A DNA stretch of 64,000 bases from a virus (taxonomy: Duplodnaviria > Caudoviricetes), in the IMG/VR virus record IMGVR_UViG_2844540631_000002, positions 1 through 64,000 of that record; one strand, given 5' to 3'. Below the pieces are notes generated by a model. The model was given only the letters and a program-made list of their open reading frames with translations, was not told where the DNA came from and ran no database searches. Positions 247-46,431 of the stretch are shown one piece after another; within the stretch, counting starts at the first letter, position 1; each line of letters opens with the position of its first letter. The translations under genes were made by a program, and so were the position numbers.

Positions 247-461
247 GCACGCCCCTCCGAGTCGCCCTGGTGGCGGCGGACTGCGCATGGACGAGAGGTG
301 CCTGGGATTTCCCGGCGCCCACCGGCCGGCGCGAGTGGAAGGGCATTCAGAACACCCCCAACGACGTGCGGCTGCTCACCCAGCACCTGACGACGCTCTA
401 CCGCGAGCGTTGCCGGAGCCGTGAGGACCGCCGTCCCACCCGAAAGGCAGGTGCCGCATGA
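243..461 (+). CDS. Small protein resembling the C-terminus of DGQHR/DpdB-family proteins
   Basis: CAWTRGAWDF...WKGIQNTPNDVRLLTQHL motif; ATGA-type overlaps with both neighbours. Confidence 0.45.
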   Translation: MSTPLRVALVAADCAWTRGAWDFPAPTGRREWKGIQNTPNDVRLLTQHLTTLYRERCRSREDRRPTRKAGAA

Positions 462-808
462 CTCCATGTCCAGACCCTCGTCCGCGTCGCCGCCGCCCGG
501 AACTTGAGCGCGGCAATGCCTCCATCGAGCCGCTGACTCCACGGCAGAAGGAAGTGGCGGCCCTCATCCTCGTCATGACGAAGGAGCGCGGCTTCCCGCC
601 CACCGTGCGCGAGTTGGCTGCCCGGCTGGGCGTCGCCTCCACCAACGGCGTCAATGACTTGCTGACGGCGCTGGAGCGCAAGCGCTGCCTCACCCGCGAA
701 TCGAAGTCGGCGCGCTCCCTGGTGCTCACCGTGTCCGGCATCGAGGCCGCGGAGGAGCACCAGCGCGACACCGCCACCACCGATGTCGAGGAAGGAGCCA
801 TGCCGTGA
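458..808 (+). CDS. LexA-type winged-HTH DNA-binding protein lacking the peptidase domain
   Basis: LTPRQKEV...GFPPTVRELAARLGVASTNGVNDLLTALERK...R..KSARSL matches the LexA DNA-binding domain; only 116 aa. Confidence 0.8.
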   Translation: MTPCPDPRPRRRRPELERGNASIEPLTPRQKEVAALILVMTKERGFPPTVRELAARLGVASTNGVNDLLTALERKRCLTRESKSARSLVLTVSGIEAAEEHQRDTATTDVEEGAMP

Positions 809-1071
809 GCGAGTCCACCCAGGAGTTCGTGCCGTACAGCCGCGAGCAGTTGCTGGAGAAGTCCAACGAGCTGGCCGGCGTCCTCGAGAAGATTGACGAG
901 GTCCGCGAGGAAAAGGCCGCGGCCATGAAGGACTTCAAGAAGACGGAGGGCGATCTCTCCGCCAAGGCCCGCAAGCTGTCCAAGGTCATCCGCCAGAAGG
1001 GCGAGTACCGGGACAGGCAGGCCACCATCTTCGAGGTGAGCGCCGCGCGGAAGCCCCGGGAGGACGCGTGA
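805..1071 (+). CDS. Hypothetical coiled-coil protein
   Basis: 88 aa charged helical ORF, coupled overlaps on both sides. Confidence 0.7.
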
Positions 1072-2186
1072 GCGCCACGACTTCCATCGAGTGGACGGAC
1101 CACACCTTCAACCCATGGCGGGGCTGCGCCAAGGTCCACCTCGGCTGCACCCATTGTTATGCCGAGAAGAACGTCGGCGTGGCAATCCATGGCATCGCCT
1201 GGGGCGAGGTGTGGTCCGGCGGGCAGCGCGTCATCGCGGACGACAGCACCTGGAGGCATCCGCGCGCATGGGCCCGCGCGGCCGCGAAGGCTGGCGTGCG
1301 CCGGCGCGTGTTCTGCGCGTCCCTGGCGGACGTGCTGGAAGTGCCCGAGTACCCGCCGTTTCAGCACCTCACCACGGAGCGCCGCGAGCGCGTGAACGAG
1401 GCGCGCCGAGCCCTCGACGAGGCGCGCGCGAAGCTCTGGGACGTAATCCGGGAGACGGCCCACGTGTGCCAGGGGTGCCAGCGCCCGCACGCGATGAGCG
1501 CTGATCTCCCGGGCAGGACGGCTCGGCTGAGCGACCTGGCCAGCGTTGGCGCGGCGTGCGAGGGGCGCGACGGCCGGTGCGTCAACACCGCCTCTGGTGG
1601 ACTCGACTGGCTGCTCCTCACGAAGCGCCCGCAGAACTGGGAGTTGGTGCCCGAGGACGTGCGCCCCTTCGTGTGGCTCGGCACGAGTGCGAGCGACCAA
1701 GGCACGTGGGACTCGGGCGCGGACGAGCTCGCCAAGGCGGAGGGCTTCGCGCAGCTCTTCGTGTCCTTGGAGCCGATGGTGGCGGCCGTGGACATGGGGC
1801 TGGGGCGGAACCGTAAGAGCGAACGCGTCCTGCGCTGGTACCGGCCGCTGAAGGACTCCATCGGCTGGGTCATCGTCGGTGGCGAGTCGGGCAGCAAGGC
1901 GCGGCCGTGCCACGTCGAGTGGGTGCGGAACATCGTGCGCCAGTGCCGCGCCGCCGGGGTGCCGTGCTTCGTCAAGCAGCTCGGCGAGGTGCCGGTGCTT
2001 CGCGAGCCGGCGGCGGGCGAGGACCCCTTCATCCCCGACAGGGAGTGGCCGCAGGGGACGCTCTTTGGGAACTACCGGCGCGTCGATGGGCTGAACGGCC
2101 GCGTCCCGAGGCTCAACGACAAGAAGGGCGGCGACATGGCCGAGTGGCCCGAGGACCTGCGCGTCCGGGAGGTGCCCCATGGTTGA
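1068..2186 (+). CDS. DUF5131 / phage Gp37Gp68 family protein (radical-SAM-like)
   Basis: [67 protein letters not shown] motifs. Confidence 0.9.
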
Positions 2187-6505: not shown

Positions 6506-8232
6506 GCACCAGGTGCTTCGGGACTGTCCGGCTGGAGAAGCGGACGCTGGGGACGCGCGGCGGCGAGCGGCCTGCCTGGGTCATCCAGTGCGAGCCCCAC
6601 GTGTCCCTCCGGCTGAAGCGCGTCTTCGACCGCGTCAACAAGGGGGACGTGGGCGAGGTGCTGCTCGCGGCCACCGCAGAGACGGCGCGGGAGTTGGAGT
6701 GGTTCATCCAGCGCTTCCCCCTGGAGGTGCAGGGCAAGGACGCGAAGGACTTCCTCAAGCACGGGGCGCGGGAGCAGGTCCGGCGCGAGGCAGCCGTCGC
6801 CGAGCTGCTCGCCGCGGACTACCAGCCGCCCGAATTCCAGATGAACGTGCCTCCGCGCGAGTACCAGCGCCGGGCGGCTGACATGTTCCTCCGGATGCGG
6901 AACCTGCTGCTTGCGGACGACGTGGGCCTGGGGAAGACGGCCTCGGCCCTCACCGCGTTCACCGACAAGCGCACGCTGCCGGCGGTGGTGGTGACGCTGA
7001 CGCACCTGCCTCGGCAGTGGCAGCGGGAGCTGGCGCGCTTCCTCCCGGGGCTGCGCGTCCACGTCGCGAAGAAGGCGACGCCGGAGGACGTCACGCGGGG
7101 CCGTGGCGGGCGGAAGCTGCCCTGGCCGGACGTCCTCGTCCTCAACTACCACAAGCTGTCGGGCTGGGCGGAGACGCTGGTCAACGCTGGCGTGCGCACC
7201 GTCGTCTTCGACGAGTGCCAGGAGCTGCGCCGCGGGCCGGACTCCGAGAAGTACCGCGCGGCGCACTTCCTCGCCCAGCGGGTCAACTTCGTCGTCGGGC
7301 TGTCCGCCACACCCATCTACAACTACGGCGGGGAGATGTTCCACGTCCTGGACTGCATCAAGCCGGGCGTGTTGGGCACCCGCGAGGAGTTCAGCCGGGA
7401 GTGGTGCACGGGCGTGGAGGACAAGCTGTCCTTCAAGGACCCGCGCGCCTTCGGCACCTACCTGCGTGACGCGGGGCTCATGCTGCGCCGCACCCGCGTG
7501 GACGTGGGGCGGGAGCTGCCCTCCCTGACGCGCGATATCCACACGGTGGAGGCCGACACGCGCGTCCTCGACGAGGTGGAGGACAAGGCCGCGGAGTTGG
7601 CCCGCATCATCCTCGCGCAGGGTGGGGTGAAGCCGGAGGACAGGCTGCAGGCCTCGGGCGAGCTGTCCTGGCGGCTGCGTCAGGCCACGGGCATCAGCAA
7701 GGCGCCCTTCGTCGCCGAGTTCGTCCGCATGCTGGTGGAGAACGGGGAGCGCGTCCTCCTCTACGGCTGGCACCATGAGGTGTACAGCATCTGGCGGGAG
7801 CGGCTGAAGGAGTACTCCCCGGCCATCTTCACCGGGCAGGAGTCGCCCACGCAGAAGGAGGCGGAGGCCCAGCGCTTCAAGTCCGGCCAGACGCCCATCC
7901 TCATCATGTCCCTGCGCGCCGGCGCGGGCCTGGACGGACTGCAGCACTGCTGCCGCACGGTGGTGTTCGGCGAGCTGGACTGGAGCCCCGGCGTGCATGA
8001 GCAGGCGTGCGGCCGCGTGCACCGGGACGGCCAGACGGACCCCGTCATGGCCTACTTCCTGGTGTCGGACAGCGGCTCGGACCCGGTGGTTGCGGACGTG
8101 CTGGGCATCAAGCGGGACCAGATGGAGGGCATCCGCGACCCGCAGGCCAGCCTCATGGAGCGCCTGGAGACGGATGAGAACCGTGTCCGGCGCCTGGCCG
8201 AGTCCTTCCTGAAGAACCGGAGGGCGGCATGA
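6502..8232 (+). CDS. SNF2-family (SF2) helicase
   Basis: LADDVGLGKT (Walker A), VFDECQ (Walker B), LSATP, WSPGVHEQACGRVHRDGQ (motif VI); GTG start at 6502. Confidence 0.92.
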   Translation: MSTRCFGTVRLEKRTLGTRGGERPAWVIQCEPHVSLRLKRVFDRVNKGDVGEVLLAATAETARELEWFIQRFPLEVQGKDAKDFLKHGAREQVRREAAVAELLAADYQPPEFQMNVPPREYQRRAADMFLRMRNLLLADDVGLGKTASALTAFTDKRTLPAVVVTLTHLPRQWQRELARFLPGLRVHVAKKATPEDVTRGRGGRKLPWPDVLVLNYHKLSGWAETLVNAGVRTVVFDECQELRRGPDSEKYRAAHFLAQRVNFVVGLSATPIYNYGGEMFHVLDCIKPGVLGTREEFSREWCTGVEDKLSFKDPRAFGTYLRDAGLMLRRTRVDVGRELPSLTRDIHTVEADTRVLDEVEDKAAELARIILAQGGVKPEDRLQASGELSWRLRQATGISKAPFVAEFVRMLVENGERVLLYGWHHEVYSIWRERLKEYSPAIFTGQESPTQKEAEAQRFKSGQTPILIMSLRAGAGLDGLQHCCRTVVFGELDWSPGVHEQACGRVHRDGQTDPVMAYFLVSDSGSDPVVADVLGIKRDQMEGIRDPQASLMERLETDENRVRRLAESFLKNRRAA

Positions 8233-9446
8233 CCACGCCCTGCGCTCCGCTCCGAGCTCCTTTCCCTTGGTTCGGCGGGAAGAGCCGCGCTGCCCACCTC
8301 GTGTGGGCGGCATTCGGCGACACGGCCAACTACGTGGAGCCGTTCGCCGGCAGCCTCGCTGTCCTGCTGGGCCGGCCCACGTCGCCTGGCGTGGAGACCG
8401 TCAACGACCTGGACTGCTACCTCGCCAACTTCTGGCGGGCGCTGTCCGCGGCGCCGGACGAGGTGGCGCACCACGCGGACTGGCCCGTCAACGAGGCGGA
8501 CCTCCACGCGCGGCACCGCTGGCTGGTGGCCCAGGCCGACTTCCGCGCGCGCATGCGGCAGGACCCGGAGTACTTCGACGCGCGCGTCGCCGGTTGGTGG
8601 GTGTGGGGGCTCTGCCAGTGGATTGGCAGTGGCTGGTGCGCCCAGCCCTCCTGGGAGGCCCAGGACGCCGCCGGCGCCGAGAAGACGTGCGGCATCGCCA
8701 CGTCCGAGTACTCGAAGCGGCCGATGCTCGACAAACCGGGCCGGGGCGTCCACCAGCTTGCCGTGCGCGGGAAGGCCACGTCCGAGCATAAGCAGCGCCC
8801 GCACCTGACGGACGGCATCGGCGTGCATGCGCAGCGCCTGCGCGACCTGGGGCGCGCGTCGGAGTGGGGCAAGCGCCCGAGCCTGGGCCGCGGTGGGCGG
8901 GGCGTGCATGGCCTGTCGAACCAGATGCCCCTGGTGAGGGGTGACGGTGGCGCGTCGGGCATGGGCATCCACGCCACCGGGAAGCAGGGAGGGCTCCACG
9001 CGTGGATGCAGGCCCTGGCGGACCGGCTGCGCTACGTGCGCGTCTGCTGTGGAGACTGGAGCCGCATCCTCTCGCCCAACGTCACGGAGCGCATCGGCGT
9101 GACGGGCGTGCTGCTGGACCCGCCGTACTCCGACGCCGCGGGGCGCGACCCCAGCATCTACGCCGAAGAGGACCTGCAGGTGGCCCACCGCGTGCGCGAG
9201 TGGGCAGTGGCGAACGGGGACAACCCGCGCCTGCGCATCGCCCTGTGTGGTTACGAGGGCGAGCACGAGATGCCCGCGTCCTGGCGCTGCGTCGCGTGGA
9301 AGGCGCCGGGCGGGTACGCGGCCGCGCGGGGGAACCACGAGAACGCCCTGCGCGAGCGCATCTGGTTCAGCCCTCGCTGCCTGGCCCCGGCGGAGGACCC
9401 GCTCCACGGGCTTCCGCTGGCTCGCGTCTCCGGAGGTCCTCGATGA
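8229..9446 (+). CDS. DNA adenine methyltransferase (D12/Dam class) with internal insertion
   Basis: PFPWFGGKS, YVEPFAGS, ETVNDLD, LLDPPY catalytic motif. Confidence 0.88.
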   Translation: MTTPCAPLRAPFPWFGGKSRAAHLVWAAFGDTANYVEPFAGSLAVLLGRPTSPGVETVNDLDCYLANFWRALSAAPDEVAHHADWPVNEADLHARHRWLVAQADFRARMRQDPEYFDARVAGWWVWGLCQWIGSGWCAQPSWEAQDAAGAEKTCGIATSEYSKRPMLDKPGRGVHQLAVRGKATSEHKQRPHLTDGIGVHAQRLRDLGRASEWGKRPSLGRGGRGVHGLSNQMPLVRGDGGASGMGIHATGKQGGLHAWMQALADRLRYVRVCCGDWSRILSPNVTERIGVTGVLLDPPYSDAAGRDPSIYAEEDLQVAHRVREWAVANGDNPRLRIALCGYEGEHEMPASWRCVAWKAPGGYAAARGNHENALRERIWFSPRCLAPAEDPLHGLPLARVSGGPR

Positions 9447-37286: not shown

Positions 37287-37694
37287 CTAGTCGCCATTTT
37301 GGTCCTTCTTCCAAGCGTCGAAGAAAGCCCGGACATTAACGGATTGTGCCTGAATGGCCTGCATTAAGTCGAATGTCCCGCTAACCTGATGGAAAACATA
37401 TTCGGCATCATTGCTGTATTGTGACAACAGTGCAACGTCAATTCTTGATGTGGTGTACCATTCGTCAGTTTCGCCGAGATAGTCTCGATATGTAATTTCG
37501 TAAACGCCGATTCTCCAGGTTTTGAAATTTGTAGTATAGATACAGGGAGGGGGGATGAGGCTTTTCGTGCCAATTGAGTCCGGGACCTTGCCTCTCGTCC
37601 AAACGAGCTTCCCAGACAGCGTTTCGCGCGTCATGTCGGAAATGAATCGTACCGTCTCTGCTTCGGTCATTAGAGCTTTCCTCCTGCTTTCCAA
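37287..37694 (-). CDS. AT-rich hypothetical protein (moron, gene 2)
   Basis: 135 aa ORF in a low-GC island, overlapping the upstream TM gene. Confidence 0.75.
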   Translation of the reverse strand: MESRRKALMTEAETVRFISDMTRETLSGKLVWTRGKVPDSIGTKSLIPPPCIYTTNFKTWRIGVYEITYRDYLGETDEWYTTSRIDVALLSQYSNDAEYVFHQVSGTFDLMQAIQAQSVNVRAFFDAWKKDQNGD

Positions 37695-38257
37695 TCTTGC
37701 TCAAGGTTCTTCAAGTGAGTGGTTAGTTCGAGAGTTAGCACATGTAGTTCGTTGAAATATCCCTTGGATACAACCTCCTCCTTTTGTTGGATTTTCCTTA
37801 GGAGTATGTCCGCCGGTGTTTTTTGGTCGCCTGATAATTTCGCCATTGCACTCTGTGCGCTCATTTTTATTTGAGACATAACGAGGAGTGCGTCGATTTC
37901 GGCGGCTGGAAGATCCTGGGTCAGCCTGATGAGTTTGGACGCGTGTTCCTCAAGGTCCTTCCTGATTTTTGGTATTCTCTTAATCTTTAATAGGGATGTT
38001 TCGACGGAGTTTACCTTTGAGAGAGTTACGAACGTGACGACTATCGATAGAATCCCTAGTGCCAGTCCTCCTATGTCTGCGGTTTTGGCGAGAGTTGCCC
38101 AGCAGTCGTTGCTAGCGTCTGTGATTTCGGTTGCGGACGTGCGGTTTAGGTTCGAAACAGACGTCGACGTTGCTGTGCTTGTATCTGTGGATGATGGTCG
38201 GAGTAGGACGGTTTCCTTGGTGGTTGGTGCTGTGGTGTGAGTGTGTTGTGGTGGCAT
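37670..38257 (-). CDS. AT-rich single-pass membrane protein (moron, gene 1); start uncertain
   Basis: Thr/Ser-rich N-terminus, TM GGLALGILSIVVTFVTL, helical cytoplasmic C-terminus. Confidence 0.6.
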   Translation of the reverse strand: MPPQHTHTTAPTTKETVLLRPSSTDTSTATSTSVSNLNRTSATEITDASNDCWATLAKTADIGGLALGILSIVVTFVTLSKVNSVETSLLKIKRIPKIRKDLEEHASKLIRLTQDLPAAEIDALLVMSQIKMSAQSAMAKLSGDQKTPADILLRKIQQKEEVVSKGYFNELHVLTLELTTHLKNLEQDWKAGGKL

Positions 38258-39019
38258 TGTTTGCGGGGCGTTGAGCGCGGGGGGGGAGGCATCGTTTGAT
38301 GTTTGGGATATTGGGTGGGTGCAAGGGAGTTGTTGTCCTCCTGCGTGTGTCCATGTGTGGTCCGTCGGCGAGAATGGCCGTATTCGTCCCTTCGTAGTTG
38401 AAGACTTAAGCCAGTATACCGGACCACGGCCAATCCGAAGTTCGCGATTTTCGCTCTGTCGGCGTTGTGGTGGTTTGCGGGAGGGGCAGCGGATAAGGGG
38501 CTTAGGGCTTCCGATTCGAGTAGCGTTTGGTGCGTCGCGTTGGTTTGATGCATCGCTCCGCCGTGGGTTGTCAGTCTTGGTCATATATGACCCATGTCGA
38601 GCTATGGATGTTCGCTCTGTGTCGCATTGGAGGTGCGGAGGCCGGCACGCCTCCTGCTCTGCGACACCGCATCGAACCGGGCTCGCGTGGGGCTTCACCG
38701 GCGCGGCTTCGGCCCTCGGACGCCCAGTACCCGCCTTCCTTCGCTTCCCCGTTCCGGTGCTCGCTGCCGTGACTTTCCTGCATTGTGGTCCCACGGAGGA
38801 GGGCGACGGTCGCCTACCGCCGACCTTCTCGCGAGACGGGGGCTCCATGGGGGAAGGGGGCGGGACGCCTCCGGCGGACTCCGGTCGCACGTGTACACTG
38901 CGGAGCTCGGGCAAGTCCTGGGGGCCGGACGGCTGCGGCGGGATGTGCGGCTTCTTCCCGGCCAACTCTACATGCAACGCGGATGGGGCAAGCTACGGCT
39001 GTGCCGCTATGCTCAGAAG

Positions 39020-39748
39020 ATGAACTGGGAACGATACGAACAGGTAATCGTGGAAAAATTTCGACGCGATTATCCCGGTCCACACTTTCGGGTGGAGCCG
39101 TCTGGCGATCAGAAGCACAAGATCATGGGGTACAAGTCCGGAAAGCCGCGTCAGGTTGATGTTGCTGTTTTCAGGAGAGGGATGTGTGAACCATTCCTGG
39201 TGGTTGATGCAAAGTGCTGGAAATCTGCTTTGGATGTTAAGGATATTGAGTCGTTCATTGGCCTCGTGTCGGATGTGGGTGCCGAGGCCGGTGTTCTTGT
39301 TGCGAGTTCCGGTTTTTCAAAGGCGTCTCTGCGTCGGGTGGAAGAGCTTGGCATAACGCTGCAAGTCGTCGGAACGGATGAGGCGCTGGAGTGGGACTGG
39401 TTGGGAGTGGGGCGAAGAATCTATTCGAGTGATTGGGCATTTCATCGGGAGCTGGGACGCGCGCTTCGCTTGCTTGAGGACGGTGCGCACGCGGAAGTTG
39501 TTGCTGAGGTCTTGGAAAATGTTGGTTTTGATGAATGGGAGAATGCAGCCGGCTATGCAATAGATCGCCATAGAGATGAGGCGCTCATATTCTTGGAGTG
39601 GGTGGCGACACGCCATGACGACGCTGGGTGGCGATTCAATGCTGCTCGTCGCTTGGCGGAGAAGGGCTGCCTGTCGGACGTGATCCGAAGTCGAGCTGTG
39701 GCGCTTGAGGTAGATTCTGCTGCCCGAAAAGAGCTTGAGGAGATGTAA
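39020..39748 (+). CDS. Mrr-like (Mrr_cat) restriction endonuclease domain protein
   Basis: RQVDVAV...VVDAKCWK..LDVKDIESF...GVLVASSGFS; start at ATG 39020; lower GC. Confidence 0.8.
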   Translation: MNWERYEQVIVEKFRRDYPGPHFRVEPSGDQKHKIMGYKSGKPRQVDVAVFRRGMCEPFLVVDAKCWKSALDVKDIESFIGLVSDVGAEAGVLVASSGFSKASLRRVEELGITLQVVGTDEALEWDWLGVGRRIYSSDWAFHRELGRALRLLEDGAHAEVVAEVLENVGFDEWENAAGYAIDRHRDEALIFLEWVATRHDDAGWRFNAARRLAEKGCLSDVIRSRAVALEVDSAARKELEEM

Positions 39749-39828
39749 GTCGAGGCACATTGAAAGTGCCGACGGAGTCGACATCGCTGGTGCAGGACTC
39801 AGTCCACGCGCGCAGTGACAATTCCGCC

Positions 39829-40419
39829 ATGGAGCGATTCCCCTTCAAACCAAGCTGGGGTGCCCAGCTTGAGAGCCAGCCGCGGGTGAGGAAGGCCCAG
39901 TTCGGCGACGGCTACTCCCAGCGCTCGGAGGACGGGGCCCGTGGACTCCTCCAGCGCTGGTCCCTCCAGTTCACCGCGCGCCGGAAGTCCGAGGCGGACG
40001 CGCTTGACGCCTTCCTTCGAACTCACCGGGGCGTAGCGGCCTTCGAGTTCGTGGTGCCGGACAGCGCATGGGCCGTCACCGGCCAGGTGTTCGGCACCGG
40101 GGATGGCGCGCGGACGCAGTTCTCCTTGCTGCGCCCCCTTGCCCCGGACGCGACGGTGGGCGAGTTGGTGCCCGCCGTGGGGTGGGAGGCTGCGCCGCTC
40201 CTTTACCGCGACGGGGTGTTGCTGACGGTGGGGGCCGACTGCTCGCTGGCGCCCTCGGGGCTCGTCACGTTCGCGGTTGCGCCGTCCGCAGGCGCCCAGC
40301 TCACCTTCACTGCGGCCGGCGCCCAGGAGCTGCGCGTCGTCTGTGAGCGGTGGACGAGCACGCTGAAGGGCTTCAACGCCTACGACGTATCCGCCGAGTT
40401 TGATGAGGTGGCGGTGTGA
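39829..40419 (+). CDS. Minor tail protein M-like (distal tail) with inserted beta-sandwich domain
   Basis: PRVRKAQFGDGYSQR...W.L.F...DAFLRTHRG..AFEF; insertion FGTGDGARTQF...YRDGV...GLVTFAVAP. Confidence 0.85.
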   Translation: MERFPFKPSWGAQLESQPRVRKAQFGDGYSQRSEDGARGLLQRWSLQFTARRKSEADALDAFLRTHRGVAAFEFVVPDSAWAVTGQVFGTGDGARTQFSLLRPLAPDATVGELVPAVGWEAAPLLYRDGVLLTVGADCSLAPSGLVTFAVAPSAGAQLTFTAAGAQELRVVCERWTSTLKGFNAYDVSAEFDEVAV

Positions 40420-40436: not shown

Positions 40437-41603
40437 CTATGGCCCCGAGTCGGTTTCGCTTGGTGAAGGAGGAGGAGGGCCACTGCATGGCAGTGGGACA
40501 GTGAGTTCGGCTTGCCAGCGCTCGCGCGTTGCCGCCCACCTCAGTGTAACTTGTACCCTGATTTCGCGTGTCACCCAGTCCAGATTCAGCACAAGAACTG
40601 ACTCGACTCGTTCGACGAACCCAAGCTGGGCCTCCATTGTCTCCGTTCTTTCGCGTGCGGAGTGCATGTAGTTGATGGTCCGCACGGGTATGTTTACAAG
40701 TCGGGCCATGTCGAGAAGTAGCAAGCGCCCAAGCAGGACGAGGTCATCCCGATGGGCTTCTGCCAAATCTCGCCATCTTGAACCCCAGTCAGGGTGAAAC
40801 GTCGATGATTGGTATGGTTCTGACAGTATCGCCCAAATTCTCTGTTTGGCGTGGTCAAGCCCCTCGACGAGCGCAAGGTCACCATTCTCGACCACTAGAT
40901 CTCCATCGAGTAGTGCGAGATCGATGCCCAATTCTCGTGGGTCCGCTCGCTCATGCCGAGGAAGAACTGGAAGCACCACAACCATCCCCGAGCCGCGTGT
41001 ATCGGTTTTGTATTCCCACTCAGGTGTGCCGGTCAGCAGCCTCCCGTCCCCTTGCGACTCAACGGTGACGAAGCGCACATCGCCGGTGCCGCCTTCTATG
41101 AAATTTCGGAGCGCGGAATCATCACCAAGGATAAATCGCTTGATGCCAAACCTCCACCTGTCAATGCTCCCGCCAAGCCAGATGGCACTTACGACGATGT
41201 TGAAGCCGAAGGCTACGAGGGTCGTGGGCTCAAGTAGGGAATCGACTCCCGGCCCGACTAAGGACTCGTGTGCATCGCGCTCAGCCAGTGCTCTCCACTG
41301 TCGAAGGGTTTCGGCTGAATAGTTTAGGTGGTCTTTGTCAATGATGTCAGCGCAGTTGCTGCAGAGCCAAATGCCATTGCCGATGTTGATCCTTTGGTCT
41401 TTCGTGAGGCTGCTGTCGTAGCGGGGGCCATTTGGGGCTGCCGCAGTGATGTGGGCTGCTTCGCCAGCAGTAACAAATCCCAGGTTGTCGCCATTCTTAG
41501 GTCCAATTGTAGGCCGGCGACATTGGGGCGCAGAGCATCGCCAAGCCACTCTTGATGCAAGAGCACGTATTGTCGTCGATGAAAATTCGTCTCGAGCCGC
41601 CAT
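40437..41603 (-). CDS. HNH-type nuclease domain fused to a C-terminal gp25/DUF2634 baseplate-wedge-like domain
   Basis: N-term RDEFS...LASRVAWRCS.P.C...GEAAHI.AA...GPRYD...NGIWLCSNC..IIDKD; C-term DLALLDGDL...GDLALVEGLDHAKQRI...FHPDWGS; SD GGAGG before ATG 41603. Confidence 0.7.
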   Translation of the reverse strand: MAARDEFSSTTIRALASRVAWRCSAPQCRRPTIGPKNGDNLGFVTAGEAAHITAAAPNGPRYDSSLTKDQRINIGNGIWLCSNCADIIDKDHLNYSAETLRQWRALAERDAHESLVGPGVDSLLEPTTLVAFGFNIVVSAIWLGGSIDRWRFGIKRFILGDDSALRNFIEGGTGDVRFVTVESQGDGRLLTGTPEWEYKTDTRGSGMVVVLPVLPRHERADPRELGIDLALLDGDLVVENGDLALVEGLDHAKQRIWAILSEPYQSSTFHPDWGSRWRDLAEAHRDDLVLLGRLLLLDMARLVNIPVRTINYMHSARERTETMEAQLGFVERVESVLVLNLDWVTREIRVQVTLRWAATRERWQAELTVPLPCSGPPPPSPSETDSGP

Positions 41604-41806
41604 CGTTCGCCGTCCTCCACTGAGTATGGTAGCGTACCGCATCGCTAGGCCAATGCCGTCGCTTAATGCAGGAACACCCCTTCGGACGGTGTCCTCCGCG
41701 TATGTGAAGACGGAGGCATGCTCTGCCGTCTATCTGTTCTTGTCGCGCGGTACCTCGCCTACGTCCTGCCCATGGTCGTCCACCTCACGTGCGAAGTAGC
41801 TGGCCT

Positions 41807-42502
41807 GTGAGCATCGCCGAGGACCTTCAGAAGCTGGAGCCGGGCGCCCTCGTGGAGCTCTTCGTGCTGGATGCCACGGCGCTGCCCGGCGGCGGCATCA
41901 GCTACTTCCACGCGGGCACCAACGGACTGGGCGGGCCGGTGGTGTGGCAGGGCGCGGAGTACCAGCCCTGGCCCGTGGAGGCGCGGGGCTTCGAGAAATC
42001 CGGCACGGGGCGCCTGCCTCGGCCCACGCTTACCATGGCCAACGTGGCGGGCACCATCGGCGCCCTGGCCCGGGACTTCAACGACTTGCTGGGCGCGCGC
42101 GTCCTGCGCAAGCGCACCTTCGCGCGCTACCTCGACGCGGTGAACTTCCCCGGCGGCGTCAACCCCACCGCCAGCCCGGTGGAGGCATTCCCCGATGACG
42201 AGTTCGTGGTGGACCAGAAGACGTCCGAGTCGAAGCACTTCATTGAGTTCGCGCTCGCGGCGCGGTGTGACTTGGACGGCATCCGCATCCCGCTGCGCGT
42301 CATCACGCAGATGTGCGGGTGGGAGTACCGGAAGGAGGGGTGTGGGTACGCGGGCCCGCCTGTGGCGAAGGTGGACGACAGCCCGACGACGTCGCCAGCG
42401 GAGGACAGGTGCGGGAAGCGGCTGGGGAGCTGCACGCTGCGCTTCGGGGAGACGGGAGTGTTACCGTTCGGGGGCTTTCCTGGCTGTGGACTTCTCAGGT
42501 AG
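41807..42502 (+). CDS. Minor tail protein L-like
   Basis: VELFVLD...WQGAEYQPWP.EARGFE...RPTLT.AN...C.W.YR...CGY.G...D.CGKRL..C.LRFG...FGGFPG. Confidence 0.92.
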   Translation: MSIAEDLQKLEPGALVELFVLDATALPGGGISYFHAGTNGLGGPVVWQGAEYQPWPVEARGFEKSGTGRLPRPTLTMANVAGTIGALARDFNDLLGARVLRKRTFARYLDAVNFPGGVNPTASPVEAFPDDEFVVDQKTSESKHFIEFALAARCDLDGIRIPLRVITQMCGWEYRKEGCGYAGPPVAKVDDSPTTSPAEDRCGKRLGSCTLRFGETGVLPFGGFPGCGLLR

Positions 42503-42517
42503 CGAAGGAGGAATGAG

Positions 42518-43138
42518 GTGCCTTGCAAGCTTGACCTCACGGGCCAGACATTCGGACGCCTCACGGTGCTGGAAGAGGCTCCGAAGAAGGGGAAAGAGTC
42601 GGCTTGGCGGTGTCGCTGTGTCTGCGGCACCGAGACGATTGTGGCGGTCGGCAAGTTGAGGGGTGGCACTACCGCATCGTGTGGATGCATCCGTCAGGAG
42701 CGACTCGCCGAGCGGAATCGCACGCACGGCTTGACGGGGACTCCGACACATCGGAGTTGGAAGGCGATGTTGTCGCGATGCACGAACCCCAAATATCCTG
42801 GGTTCCAGAAGTACGGGGCCCGCGGCATCACCGTCTGTTCGCGTTGGCGCTCATTCGAGAACTTCCTTGTGGACATGGGGGAGCGTCCACCCGGGAAGAC
42901 GCTCGACCGCATCGACAACAACGGCCCTTACTCGCCAGAGAACTGTCGCTGGGCGAGTCTCCGAGAACAGAGTCTGAACAAGCGTTCCAACCGACGCATC
43001 ACCATGGATGGGATGACGTTGACCCTTTTGGAGTGGTGCGAGCGCCTCAATCGAAAGCGGGCAACGGTCTATGACCGACTCCGGCTGGGATGGTCCATTG
43101 AGCGGGCCCTGACTGAGCCGGTGAGTGGCGGCAGTTGA
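42518..43138 (+). CDS. Phage HNH homing-endonuclease-like protein
   Basis: [12 protein letters not shown]...WRCRCVCG...SCGC...[18 protein letters not shown]...[17 protein letters not shown]. Confidence 0.88.
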
Positions 43139-43191: not shown

Positions 43192-43980
43192 TTAGGTGGC
43201 ACTCGCCGCTTTTGCCGCCATGGCCGATGGCGATGAAGGCTGGATCGCAATGTTGCGCACTTCATAGGTAATACCTTGTTGAGATGGAATCGTTGGAGTG
43301 GGAATCAAGAAGTCCGTGGATACGAGCACTAGATATCGATACGTAGCTAGTTCGAAGCCGGCGAGTGTCTCCCCAGAGTATCTCTCGGCCTGGACATGTG
43401 CTTCCCTTGCCTTTTTAATGGGAGCATCGCCCGCGCGTACGACTTTCCACTCGGTAAGGACCATTGCGTCAGCTACTTGTGCGGCTTCACGTTCGATTAG
43501 GGCCTGCCCCAAGACGAGGTCGGTCTTGCCGCCTGTTGAGTTTGCCTTGAATGCCCAGATGCTGTGAAGAAGCATGTGAACAGCCCCGAGCTTCTCGCAC
43601 GCTTCTTCAGCGCGGGCTTCCTGAAGCGCGCGCATCCACTTCGTCTGGATATCGACGTCAGCAACAAGGCTTCGTTGTAGGTGTGTAAACGCGCGATCTA
43701 CTGCCCGGCGCGCCCGTGCATTCTTGTCAGTCAAGAAATAGTCAACTTGCGCACGAACGGTGCTGAGGCGACATGCCATATGAAATACGCCCTCCGCGCT
43801 TGTTGAGCCGGAGCCTTGGAACTCCATGTCTGCATCAGCCGCGCAGATGAAGTTGTCGAGAGCTTCCTGGGCGCCCGGGTGCAGGTGAGATTTGAATTGT
43901 GTGTTGAACTGCTTTAGGAGTGCGTATAGGTCTCTGAGTTCATGTTTCGCAGTTTTGTTGAGCGTAGCTGTGCTCGACAT
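43192..43980 (-). CDS. Hypothetical protein with C-terminal PD-(D/E)xK-like nuclease motif (moron)
   Basis: KTDLV...LTEWK...QAERY; lower GC, antisense. Confidence 0.65.
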   Translation of the reverse strand: MSSTATLNKTAKHELRDLYALLKQFNTQFKSHLHPGAQEALDNFICAADADMEFQGSGSTSAEGVFHMACRLSTVRAQVDYFLTDKNARARRAVDRAFTHLQRSLVADVDIQTKWMRALQEARAEEACEKLGAVHMLLHSIWAFKANSTGGKTDLVLGQALIEREAAQVADAMVLTEWKVVRAGDAPIKKAREAHVQAERYSGETLAGFELATYRYLVLVSTDFLIPTPTIPSQQGITYEVRNIAIQPSSPSAMAAKAASAT

Positions 43981-44632: not shown

Positions 44633-45364
44633 ATGGACCCCTCTGGCCTGTCGTCGCTGGTGGATGTCGTCATCGAATCCGCTCGGGCCCACGCTCGAAT
44701 TGAGTACCCACGCGAGTCGTGCGGCCTCGTGGTGCTTGTGAATGGCATGCCACAGTACGTCGCGTGCCGTAATCAGGCCGAGGGGCAGGCCCACTTCATC
44801 CTCCACCCGGAGGACTACGCGCGGGCGGAGGCGGAAGGGGAGGTGGTGGCGGTGGTGCACTCCCACCCCAACGCGGCCCCGGAGCCGAGCGAGGCGGACC
44901 GCGTCAGCATGGAGCGCTGGGGCCTGCCCTGGCTCATCGTCAACGTGCCCGTGGGCCACTGGCGGCTGTGGCACCCCACCGGGTACCGGCCGCCGCTGGT
45001 GGGCCGCCCCTTCAGCCACGGCGTCCTGGACTGCTTCTCCCTCATTCGCGACTACTACCAGGAGCGGCTGGGACTCGAGCTGCCCGACTTCCACCGGCCG
45101 GACGGCTGGTGGGACAAGGGCGGCAACCTCTACCTGGACGGGTACGCCGAGGCGGGCTTCGTGGACGTCACCGGCCAGGCGCTGCGCGAGCATGACGTGC
45201 TCCTCATGCAGCTGCGCGCGCCGGTGCCCAACCACGCGGGCGTCTACCTGGGGGCGGACGTCGTCCTCCACCACCTCCAGAATCGCCTCTCTGGAAGGGA
45301 GACGTACTCGGGCTTCTGGGAGCGAATCACCCGGAAGGTCGTCCGACACCGCACCCTATGCTGA
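44633..45364 (+). CDS. Tail assembly protein K-like (JAB + NlpC/P60)
   Basis: ESCGLV...VHSHP...PSEAD JAMM motif; LDCFSLIRDYY...NHAGVYLG..HH NlpC. Confidence 0.92.
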   Translation: MDPSGLSSLVDVVIESARAHARIEYPRESCGLVVLVNGMPQYVACRNQAEGQAHFILHPEDYARAEAEGEVVAVVHSHPNAAPEPSEADRVSMERWGLPWLIVNVPVGHWRLWHPTGYRPPLVGRPFSHGVLDCFSLIRDYYQERLGLELPDFHRPDGWWDKGGNLYLDGYAEAGFVDVTGQALREHDVLLMQLRAPVPNHAGVYLGADVVLHHLQNRLSGRETYSGFWERITRKVVRHRTLC

Positions 45365-46431
45365 CAACGGTGGTACTCGGAGGGCCGCTGGGCCGGCACT
45401 TCGGCCGCGTCTGGCGGTTGGACTTGAGCGTGCCTTCGCCCGCCGAGGCCGTGCGCGCCCTCTCGGCGGTGTGCGAGGGCTTCGCGCGGTATCTGGTGGA
45501 GCACAGCGAGCCGGGCTTCCACGTCTTCGTCGGCAAGCGCGACGTGGGCCAGGACGAACTGGCGCGCCCGGCTGACGCGCCCGTCATCACCGTCATTCCG
45601 GCCCTGGCCGGGGCGAAGGTGGGCGTCTTCCAGGTGGTGATGGGGGCCGTGCTCATCGCAGGCGGCGCGGTGCTCTCGGCCTACGGCTTCGGTGTGGGTA
45701 CGCCCCTCATCACCATGGGCGCATCCCTGGTGGTGGGCGGTGTCTCGCAGATGCTCTTCGCGCCGCCCGCACCTGCGGCCCCGGACGAGGAGCCGAAGAA
45801 CAAGCCCAACTACGCCTTCAACGGGCCGGTGAACACGCTGGCGCAGGGCCACCCGGTGCCCATCTGCTACGGCGAGCTGGAGGTGGGCAGCTGCGTCATC
45901 TCCGCGGGCATTGTCACCGAGTGGAGCGAGGGCGGCGGCTTCGGTGGCAAGTACGGCAGCGGGCAGACGGGGCCGGGCGGGCAGGGACCCTCGGGCGGTG
46001 GGTGTCCGGCACCATGGGTGCCCATTCTCCTTGCGGACGGGCGGGAGGTGCCCGCCGGCGAGGTGGAGGTGGGCATGCGCGTCCTCACCCAGCACGAGAC
46101 GACGCTGCGGTGGGGCGCGTACCTCGTCACCGACGTGGCCCTCTTGGAGGCGGAGTGCTGGCGGTTGGAGCTGGAGGACGGCCGCGCCTTCGTGGGCACG
46201 TACAACCACCGCGTGCGCACCGAGGCGGACTGGGTGGAGCTGCGGCACCTAGTGCCCGGCACGCTGCTGCTGGGCGCCCAGCCCGGCGTGGTGCGGGAGG
46301 TGGTGGCGTGCGGACGTGGGCCGGTGGTGCGCATCACCGTGGACGGGGCGCACACGTACCAGACGCTGAGCTTCCTCTCGCACAACGCCAAGCGCGCAGA
46401 CCCGGAGGCACCGCATGAAGTCGAAATCTGA
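45358..46431 (+). CDS. Tail assembly protein I-like (ubiquitin-like) fused to a C-terminal Hint domain
   Basis: LGGPLGRHFGR...VIPALAGAK; NYAFNGPVNT.AQG.PVP..YG; then GGG|CPAP...LADG...GTYNHRV...SHN. Confidence 0.88.
   Translation: MLTTVVLGGPLGRHFGRVWRLDLSVPSPAEAVRALSAVCEGFARYLVEHSEPGFHVFVGKRDVGQDELARPADAPVITVIPALAGAKVGVFQVVMGAVLIAGGAVLSAYGFGVGTPLITMGASLVVGGVSQMLFAPPAPAAPDEEPKNKPNYAFNGPVNTLAQGHPVPICYGELEVGSCVISAGIVTEWSEGGGFGGKYGSGQTGPGGQGPSGGGCPAPWVPILLADGREVPAGEVEVGMRVLTQHETTLRWGAYLVTDVALLEAECWRLELEDGRAFVGTYNHRVRTEADWVELRHLVPGTLLLGAQPGVVREVVACGRGPVVRITVDGAHTYQTLSFLSHNAKRADPEAPHEVEI
46003..46386 (+). other. Hint (intein/BIL-like) autoprocessing domain
   Basis: Cys1 at 46003; block B-like TYNH; terminal His-Asn at 46381-46386 followed by Ala. 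Confidence 0.8.

Follow-up and report, generated by a model that had tools for sequence, protein, structure and literature searches.

What would a prophage with a lambda-type, non-contractile tail do with a protein that resembles part of a contractile baseplate? The question is raised by a single gene (protein P0002; Table 1) in the window analysed here, a stretch of 64,000 nucleotides (positions 1 to 64,000 of IMG/VR virus record IMGVR_UViG_2844540631_000002; Duplodnaviria, Caudoviricetes) that forms part of a 78-kb provirus record. An earlier note, made from the sequence alone, had described this gene as coupling an HNH nuclease to a baseplate-wedge domain and had proposed that it acts as a sensor-effector against myophages, on the argument that a phage without a sheath has no structural use for a wedge subunit. 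We find that the nuclease is followed by two domains, the first probably tail-tube-like and the second gp25-like, and that these form a constant module which recurs behind many different effectors. The gene is best read as a defence against phages that works with a single protein, by abortive infection or superinfection exclusion, and comparison with its relatives makes it likely that it is a defence sensor-effector.

A constant module behind exchangeable effectors

A full HMMER search of 1.84 billion cluster representatives with residues 121-388 of the protein (phmmer) returned 170 clusters. When the proteins were classified with hidden Markov models of the three domains, 143 of the 151 examined held both the tube-like and the gp25-like domain, always in the same order. 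Across the ca. 170 clusters, this module is fused to at least ten types of effector. The Cap5-type HNH found in the window is carried by 91 clusters, TIR heads by six (in one case together with AbiJ_NTD5) and class III nucleotide cyclase heads by three, and further heads comprise a GGDEF/Cas10-palm domain, a PNP_UDP_1 phosphorylase, a trypsin-like protease with SLOG, a calcineurin-like phosphoesterase (Metallophos), a caspase, a Ser/Thr kinase and a helix-turn-helix (HTH) domain. PADLOC matched heads to a ThsB-like TIR, a PN effector of the cyclic oligonucleotide-based antiphage signalling system (CBASS), an Avs1b/LmuA-type protease, a PD-T4-6/Stk2-type kinase and the Cas10 palm. In defence proteins, a domain that stays the same while the attached immune effector varies is typically a sensor or switch, and it is this recurrence behind many different immune-type effectors that suggests such a role for the module. 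DSR2 (which senses the tail tube), Avs, CapRel and capsid-sensing Thoeris, all of which detect structural proteins of phages, likewise combine a swappable effector and a sensor in one polypeptide, but they sense through HEAT-like, STAND or other cellular folds, whereas the one described here apparently derives from parts of a virion baseplate.

The module is undescribed in named systems, models or papers within the libraries searched. No PADLOC v2 model covers it, be it in the window protein or in the other fusions, NCBIfam holds no family for the window protein, and an ESM Atlas search with the module gave only one lead, at 0.76, which was uninformative. In the searchable literature, we found nothing that links gp25-like, sheath-initiator or DUF2634 proteins with TIR or HNH domains or with defence and nothing on PDC-M68, and the papers on P2 hotspots that were searched (main text, supplements in part) make no mention of such terms. 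Within PADLOC v2, NCBIfam and the searchable literature, there is indeed no named system with this architecture, as the earlier note had supposed. Of the short matches that seemed to consist of the module only, the two examined look split or truncated (P0167 overlaps an upstream open reading frame [ORF] and P0263 adjoins an rve transposase) and not like free-standing baseplate proteins.

The HNH domain belongs to the Cap5/SPARHA subtype

The Cys/His motifs from which an N-terminal HNH-type domain had been recognised are all present (C23-SAPQ-C28, A49-AHI and L80-CSNC84), and both profile and structure comparisons place the domain close to those of CBASS Cap5 and of the short prokaryotic Argonaute system SPARHA (HNH-APAZ). 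The best PADLOC match of the protein is PDC-M68A (7.7e-23), of which only profile positions 3-110 of 253 align, corresponding to the HNH domain; SAVED_HNH and CBASS effector models match as well. The closest solved chain in a profile search of the PDB is the SPARHA HNH 9om4 (7.5e-21), with Cap5 at 1e-13. We predicted the structure of the protein from 39 homologues with AlphaFold2 (AF2; predicted local distance difference test score [pLDDT] 89.6, predicted template-modelling score 0.88), and residues 6-117 of this model superpose on the Cap5 HNH 7rwk_B with Z 13.6 and a root-mean-square deviation (rmsd) of 2.0 over 103 aligned residues, as a domain of the beta-beta-alpha-metal fold would. Foldseek matched the domain to 8fmh_C (E 4e-5).

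The key residues are C23, C28, C81, C84, E48, H51, N76, D89 and D91. Alignment to PsCap5, for which residue roles have been reported (PMC12141522, section 8), pairs E48 with the bridging glutamate E53, H51 with the general base H56, N76 with N82, C81 and C84 with C87 and C90, D86 with D92, and D89 with D95, the helix aspartate that is a Mg ligand. Conservation among the representatives of the 91 HNH-bearing clusters follows the same positions: H51 is present in 79 of 79 aligned sequences, N76 in 83 of 83, D89 in 91 of 91 and C81 in every aligned sequence, while D91 is found in 83 of the representatives. Since the SPARHA HNH binds Zn2+ with Cys/His residues (PMC12738770), we suggest that C23, C28, C81 and C84 form a zinc site here.

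The general-base histidine, the asparagine and the helix aspartate are common to all three proteins, as the putative zinc site appears to be. Both Cap5 and the SPARHA HNH stay inactive until their dimers associate to form tetramers or filaments (PMC12738770, sections 12-13; PMC12141522), and by its likeness to them, the HNH of the window protein is probably a non-specific DNase that is activated when a sensor joins HNH dimers. It differs from these systems by having neither a SAVED nor an APAZ domain and neither a CD-NTase nor an Argonaute partner, and also by its apparently virion-derived sensor of tube-like and gp25-like parts. We rejected membership in CBASS as a Cap5 protein: SAVED_HNH aligns to residues 6-110 only, the C-terminus is tube-like and gp25-like, and the neighbouring genes are tail genes.

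The nuclease is followed by a probable tube-like and a gp25-like domain

For the C-terminal part, a gp25/W/XkdS/TssE-like domain had been proposed and a comparison with PF10934 and TssE suggested. The Pfam score for PF10934 stays at 16.7 bits, under the gathering cut-off of 32.9 bits, and it is the fold and the family profile that place the domain. The AF2 model aligns with all 99 residues of the sheath initiator of pyocin R2 (6u5b_a, PA0617; 99 of 99, Z 10.4) and also matches 6rao_H (Z 9.7), 2ia7 (TMt 0.72, Foldseek) and TssE (6gj1_D, Z 7.8). Residues 223-360 superpose on the sheath initiators of the antifeeding prophage (AFP), the Photorhabdus virulence cassette, phiCD508, diffocin, Pa193 and phi812, on T4 gp25 and on TssE, and matches in BFVD are gpW/gp25/DUF2634 proteins. 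A profile of the family recovered the phi812 baseplate wedge 9euf_L at 2.6e-6 and Phi92 gp139 at 5.6e-4 in the PDB. When a TIR fusion was modelled independently with AF2, the gp25-like fold was found again (Z 9.4), although its module is only ca. 28% identical; the TIR domain of this fusion is 51% identical to PdTIR.

Fold and family motifs (G248..Q254, P-x-W-G274-S and (D/E)298-x-x-R301) are thus those of the gp25/gpW/XkdS/TssE proteins (PF04965, PF10934); unlike these, the domain shares its polypeptide with an enzyme and a tube-like domain and lies outside any baseplate gene set. Around Q254 and G274-S, the motifs can be aligned to a genuine P2-like gpW. When the family was compared by hhalign with the gpW resident in a P2-like carrier, only a 38-residue motif region aligned (E 0.018, probability 2.5%), so that the moron domain is only remotely like the carrier's own gpW.

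The earlier note had placed this domain alone behind the nuclease, which holds for its gp25-like part, but residues 124-220 form a second, beta-rich component of the module that probably has a tail-tube/Hcp/Dit-like fold, judging from the model. Using VIA-align, it matched Hcp5 of B. fragilis best (7yw0_A; Z 7.5, 88 aligned residues, rmsd 3.0), followed by Hcp1 (4hkh_A, Z 7.0), a Mu baseplate chain (9ki1_0, Z 6.5), SPP1 Dit (Z 6.4) and lambda gpV (Z 6.1), and ca. 25 more chains of the tube family match residues 127-216 at Z 5.6-7.4. The structural neighbours of this segment almost all belong to the tail-tube family, including baseplate hub or initiator chains of Milano and Mu. W150, G160 and the motif G185-D-G-R188 are near-invariant in this domain.

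The gene was inserted between tail genes M and L

The ORF is intact and translates into 388 amino acids. It was correctly seen in the earlier note as an antisense gene of lower G+C content (GC) with its own Shine-Dalgarno sequence: GC is ca. 0.54-0.60 compared with 0.66-0.74 in the flanking genes, which match gpM and gpL profiles (Table 1). The start at 41603 is favoured over an upstream ATG at 41642, which is probably unused, because homologues begin at the same point (MAxRDEF). The gene converges with the gpM-like gene, their stop codons lying 17 bp apart, and on its other side, the divergent intergenic region presumably holds its own promoter; a consensus scan found no sigma-70-like site in that region and no terminator. 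Other lambda-type tail genes are close by, with the tape measure gene upstream and gpK and gpI downstream, and no sheath gene (PF04984) was found in the 78-kb provirus record, both in line with the non-contractile tail that had been deduced for this prophage.

Two sister prophages (L077 and L078) encode gpL proteins 96% and 88% identical to that of the window. Genes M and L directly abut in both of them, and a homologue of the gene is absent there. This contiguity and the lower GC mark the gene as an inserted moron that has evidently been acquired horizontally by the prophage. A structural wedge or sheath-initiator subunit was rejected as an explanation, given the antisense orientation, the lower GC, the absence from the sisters and the lack of PF04984 in the record.

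Relatives occupy moron and defence sites of distant bacteria

Full-length relatives at 31-65% identity were found, in part by searching genome contigs for related loci with a 14-sequence alignment, in Myxococcaceae, Corallococcus, Pseudomonas, Methylococcaceae, E. coli, a Yersinia phage and, within the Bacteroidota, Mucilaginibacter, Chryseobacterium, Flavipsychrobacter and Paraflavitalea. This patchy spread fits horizontal transfer. The homologue of Myxococcaceae (L002/L081, 8001-9173) is annotated as a protein of 318 amino acids (P0007) without HNH. All 388 query residues were matched at that locus by tblastn, with 65% identity, and the gene call of P0007 is thus probably truncated at its start. 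A sub-family from Bacteroidota of ca. 547 amino acids (P0016, P0018, P0021, P0022 and P0035-P0037) has an additional conserved domain of ca. 170 amino acids, with no fold assigned, after the gp25-like one (alignment A1, columns ~470-643).

Several relatives lie in phages or prophages. The member of a P2-like coliphage, which is 35-37% identical to the window protein in alignment A1, sits on a low-GC insert between tail-fibre-assembly and sheath genes and shares 99% identity with ORF2 of the "Bacteriophage P2-EC46 proviral Z-region" (AJ512680.1); PGAP names it a DUF2634 domain-containing protein. That ORF is annotated as a "putative lysogenic conversion protein", with no function recorded, and the adjacent ORF1 is a Lit-family exclusion protein according to PGAP (phrog_34061). 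The member is part of a lysogenic-conversion cassette of the P2 Z-region (Z/fun), whereas the gene of the window is found in the lambda-type tail operon of a prophage that has a high GC and is probably myxobacterial. The P2-EC46 record shows its cassette bounded by annotated inverted repeats, whereas a repeat search found none bounding the cassette of the window. The P2-like member is present in six of 5,426 complete E. coli genomes. In a Mu-like element, a TIR fusion with the same module lies on an insert with a GC of 0.31-0.34 compared with ca. 0.54 for the surrounding baseplate operon (Table 1). We note that this insert is near the expected place of Mu's own gp25-like gene (gp46). A further member was found in a Corallococcus prophage.

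Other relatives have defence genes as neighbours: in Mucilaginibacter, one shares an island with SIR2_2, nSTAND3 and AAA_21, and in Pseudomonas corrugata, one directly follows an Abi_2 gene. Further members are located beside a ResIII/DEAD helicase or alone among housekeeping genes. The analysis of neighbourhoods for defence islands that had been suggested was carried out with PADLOC on 120 ORFs within 6 kb of 16 members and listed, as simple occurrences at E <1e-50, SIR2-HerA, a CBASS cyclase with TRIP13 and effector, AbiEi/Eii, AbiD, ShosA, RT_VI, PD-T4-2 and others. Among the contexts examined, no gene was found to recur next to the family members, and the protein thus appears to act alone.

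A candidate switch by assembly and its alternatives

Contractile tails nucleate the polymerisation of tube and sheath on a platform that is formed by tube initiators and gp25, as is known for the baseplates of T4, pyocin and AFP. The module resembles one-sixth of this inner baseplate platform, the place where tubes and sheaths polymerise, and may serve as both sensor and oligomerisation switch. We propose that it would stay unassembled until it is engaged by the tail-assembly proteins of an infecting phage, be they subunits of the tube, the sheath or the baseplate wedge. By being recruited by, or by nucleating, the abundant late tail subunits of the invader, the module would cluster the effectors; as several copies are drawn together, their HNH domains would be juxtaposed and degrade cellular and phage DNA in the manner of the Cap5 and SPARHA nucleases. 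TIR NADases and caspases are proximity-activated, and it is this together with the activation of the Cap5 and SPARHA HNH by assembly that suggests a switch by oligomerisation. Phage tail-tube and capsid proteins are known as triggers of DSR2 and Thoeris (PMC11290490, PMC12578639). Taken as a whole, the account of a single-protein defence nuclease that is switched on by oligomerisation of its module, with phage tail-assembly proteins as the trigger, seems to us evenly balanced between right and wrong. Tail proteins as the trigger, considered as a separate point, are a possibility that we regard as somewhat doubtful.

Several observations weigh against this account. The second metal-binding histidine of the active-site helix (H91 in PsCap5, H80 in SPARHA) is replaced by A85, and this position is alanine, serine or glycine in 84 of 87 aligned representatives of the family; activity would have to rest on D89 and D91. 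The HNH core is clearly under selection, from which we infer an active nuclease with a variant metal site. The tube-like assignment rests on Z 6-7.5, a range in which a shared arrangement can arise without common ancestry, and finds no backing at the level of sequence. The gp25 fold has been reused for a partner that is not from a phage, since IraD, which binds RssB, has it too (6od1, Z 6.5). Furthermore, of ten viral records in which full-length relatives occur, four are from myophages with a sheath gene and gpW of their own; in P2-like and Mu-like myophages, the gene lies on an insert of low GC next to the tail genes of the phage itself. In such carriers, a generic sensor of sheath or baseplate would risk triggering itself upon induction, and any sensor would have to spare the tail proteins of its carrier, to which the remote similarity of the resident gpW may be relevant. 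This distribution also undercuts the reasoning by which the lack of a structural use for a wedge had made the domain a decoy or sensor. The sensor-effector proposal itself loses that argument, while it fits the constant module behind many effectors and the location in moron and defence sites.

Effector swapping and genomic context point to a sensor or switch and say nothing about its ligand. The protein could therefore be a defence sensor-effector that responds to a cue other than tails, for instance to some other protein of the phage, to a nucleotide signal or to DNA, or its module could simply be a ring-forming scaffold that is controlled otherwise. Carriage by myophages would be easier to reconcile with such a trigger, IraD already shows the gp25 fold outside the virion, and G185-D-G-R188, the motif with the strongest conservation, is located in a loop of the tube-like domain without being known as a motif of tube proteins. 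Yet the two sub-domains correspond to adjacent parts of one virion structure and are always found together in one order, with the gp25 family motifs retained, a pairing most simply explained if interactions with tail components were kept. On balance, we consider a non-tail cue unlikely, though it is the alternative that fares best.

The resemblance to a platform of tube and sheath initiators would also suit a dominant-negative decoy that poisons the tail assembly of competitors, with an enzyme that is secondary or directed at phage DNA only, and there are prophage proteins described as blocking tail assembly in other phages. For a mere decoy, however, an enzyme would be superfluous, and the heads found here include catalytic domains typical of suicide or signalling effectors (such as TIR NADase, caspase and cyclases), while the core residues of the HNH are strictly conserved, which makes this explanation improbable. 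We give still less credit to a delivered toxin whose tube-like and gp25-like part would load the enzyme onto a type VI secretion system, a tailocin, an extracellular contractile injection system or a virion. Such a role would be in keeping with the best matches of the tube-like domain to Hcp proteins, with the existence of Hcp-HNH toxin fusions and with variable enzymatic heads on a constant trafficking domain, the pattern of polymorphic toxins. Hcp-fused and polymorphic toxins, however, have an N-terminal trafficking domain, a C-terminal toxin and an adjacent immunity gene, whereas here the enzyme is N-terminal and the module C-terminal, with no conserved immunity gene next to it. The cyclases, kinase, HTH, SLOG and AbiJ_NTD5 partners are typical of intracellular immunity, and the element in the window has no contractile apparatus and carries the gene in antisense, where its sister phages lack it. 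Finally, HNH genes commonly invade phage structural operons and the same tail operon has another HNH-like ORF at 42518-43138, but a homing endonuclease was rejected, and such a selfish element or a decaying, functionless fusion is the least probable of all, because the HNH is of the Cap5/SPARHA type (phrog_131 HNH only at E 0.058), the full three-domain architecture recurs in intact ORFs of Myxococcota, Bacteroidota and Pseudomonadota at 31-65% identity, and the module is shared with enzymes that are not nucleases.

Features of the locus and other genes at the tail-gene junctions

Table 1. Coordinates of the gene, its domains, flanking features and selected loci of relatives
Feature	Position	Strand	Basis or remark
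Whole gene, encoding P0002 with its three domains (HNH, tube-like, gp25-like)	40437..41603	-	388 codons and stop
HNH (His-Me finger) nuclease domain, Cap5/SPARHA subtype, residues 1-118	41250..41603	-	PADLOC, PDB profile search, VIA Z, conservation
Beta-rich middle domain, probably tail-tube/Hcp/Dit-like, residues 124-220	40944..41234	-	VIA-align, conservation
gp25/gpW/DUF2634 sheath-initiator-like domain, residues 223-372	40488..40937	-	Profile and structure matches
Pro/Ser-rich C-terminal tail, residues 373-388	40440..40487	-	pLDDT <65; not conserved in alignment
Shine-Dalgarno sequence GGAGGA	41613..41618	-	9 nt upstream of ATG at 41603, read from sequence
Divergent intergenic region, gene/gpL, 185 bp	41604..41788	.	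Coordinates
gpM-like flanking tail gene	39760..40419	+	PF05939, 7e-23
gpL flanking tail gene	41789..42502	+	PF05100, 2.6e-69
Lit-family gene beside family member	L071 (E. coli NZ_CP103479.1) 7667-8668; L161 (AJ512680.1) 294-1295		P2 Z-region cassette
TIR, tube-like and gp25-like protein in Mu-like element	L073 6001-7233	same strand as operon	Between Mu gp45-like and gp48-like genes

Other junctions of the tail operon carry cargo as well. Within a lower-GC insert between the tape measure gene and gpM, the ORF at 38594-39748 (+) has an Mrr_cat restriction-endonuclease domain at residues 141-256 (PF04471, 6e-10) and also a weak match to a NACHT-associated inactive restriction endonuclease; no methyltransferase was seen nearby. 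The ORFs at 37287-38977 (-), 42518-43138 (+) and 43192-43980 (-), located at the junctions of tape measure and M and of L and K, are of lower GC and gave no significant Pfam match. Sister prophages L077 and L078 carry cargo different from that of the window in these same two gaps, suggesting that several tail-gene junctions act as moron slots. Further downstream, the gpI-like protein encoded at 45358-46431 (+) matches Lambda_tail_I on residues 5-86 only, and its remaining ca. 270 residues have no Pfam assignment at E <0.01.

Implications for phage defence

Sensor-effector proteins of modular build are central to bacterial immunity, but few of their sensors have a known origin or trigger. The module described here has a recognisable origin in two neighbouring parts of the baseplate, which makes its likely ligands easy to guess. 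What seems new is an apparently virion-derived sensor module in a putative single-protein defence, whereas the modular plan of sensor and effector was already known. As a wider and decidedly tentative proposal, which we think rather unlikely to hold in full, the fusions may represent an unnamed, widespread class of bacterial and prophage immunity with a domesticated mini-baseplate as sensor, co-assembling with the polymerising tail proteins of an invader into a ring or filament that switches on the attached effector. If this is true, immunity would sense virion assembly through the viral assembly template itself. The member from the P2 Z-region of E. coli makes the idea directly testable with standard panels of coliphages. 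Its confirmation would mean that parts of the phage assembly machinery have been turned into detectors of competing phages and would help explain why morons accumulate in tail operons.

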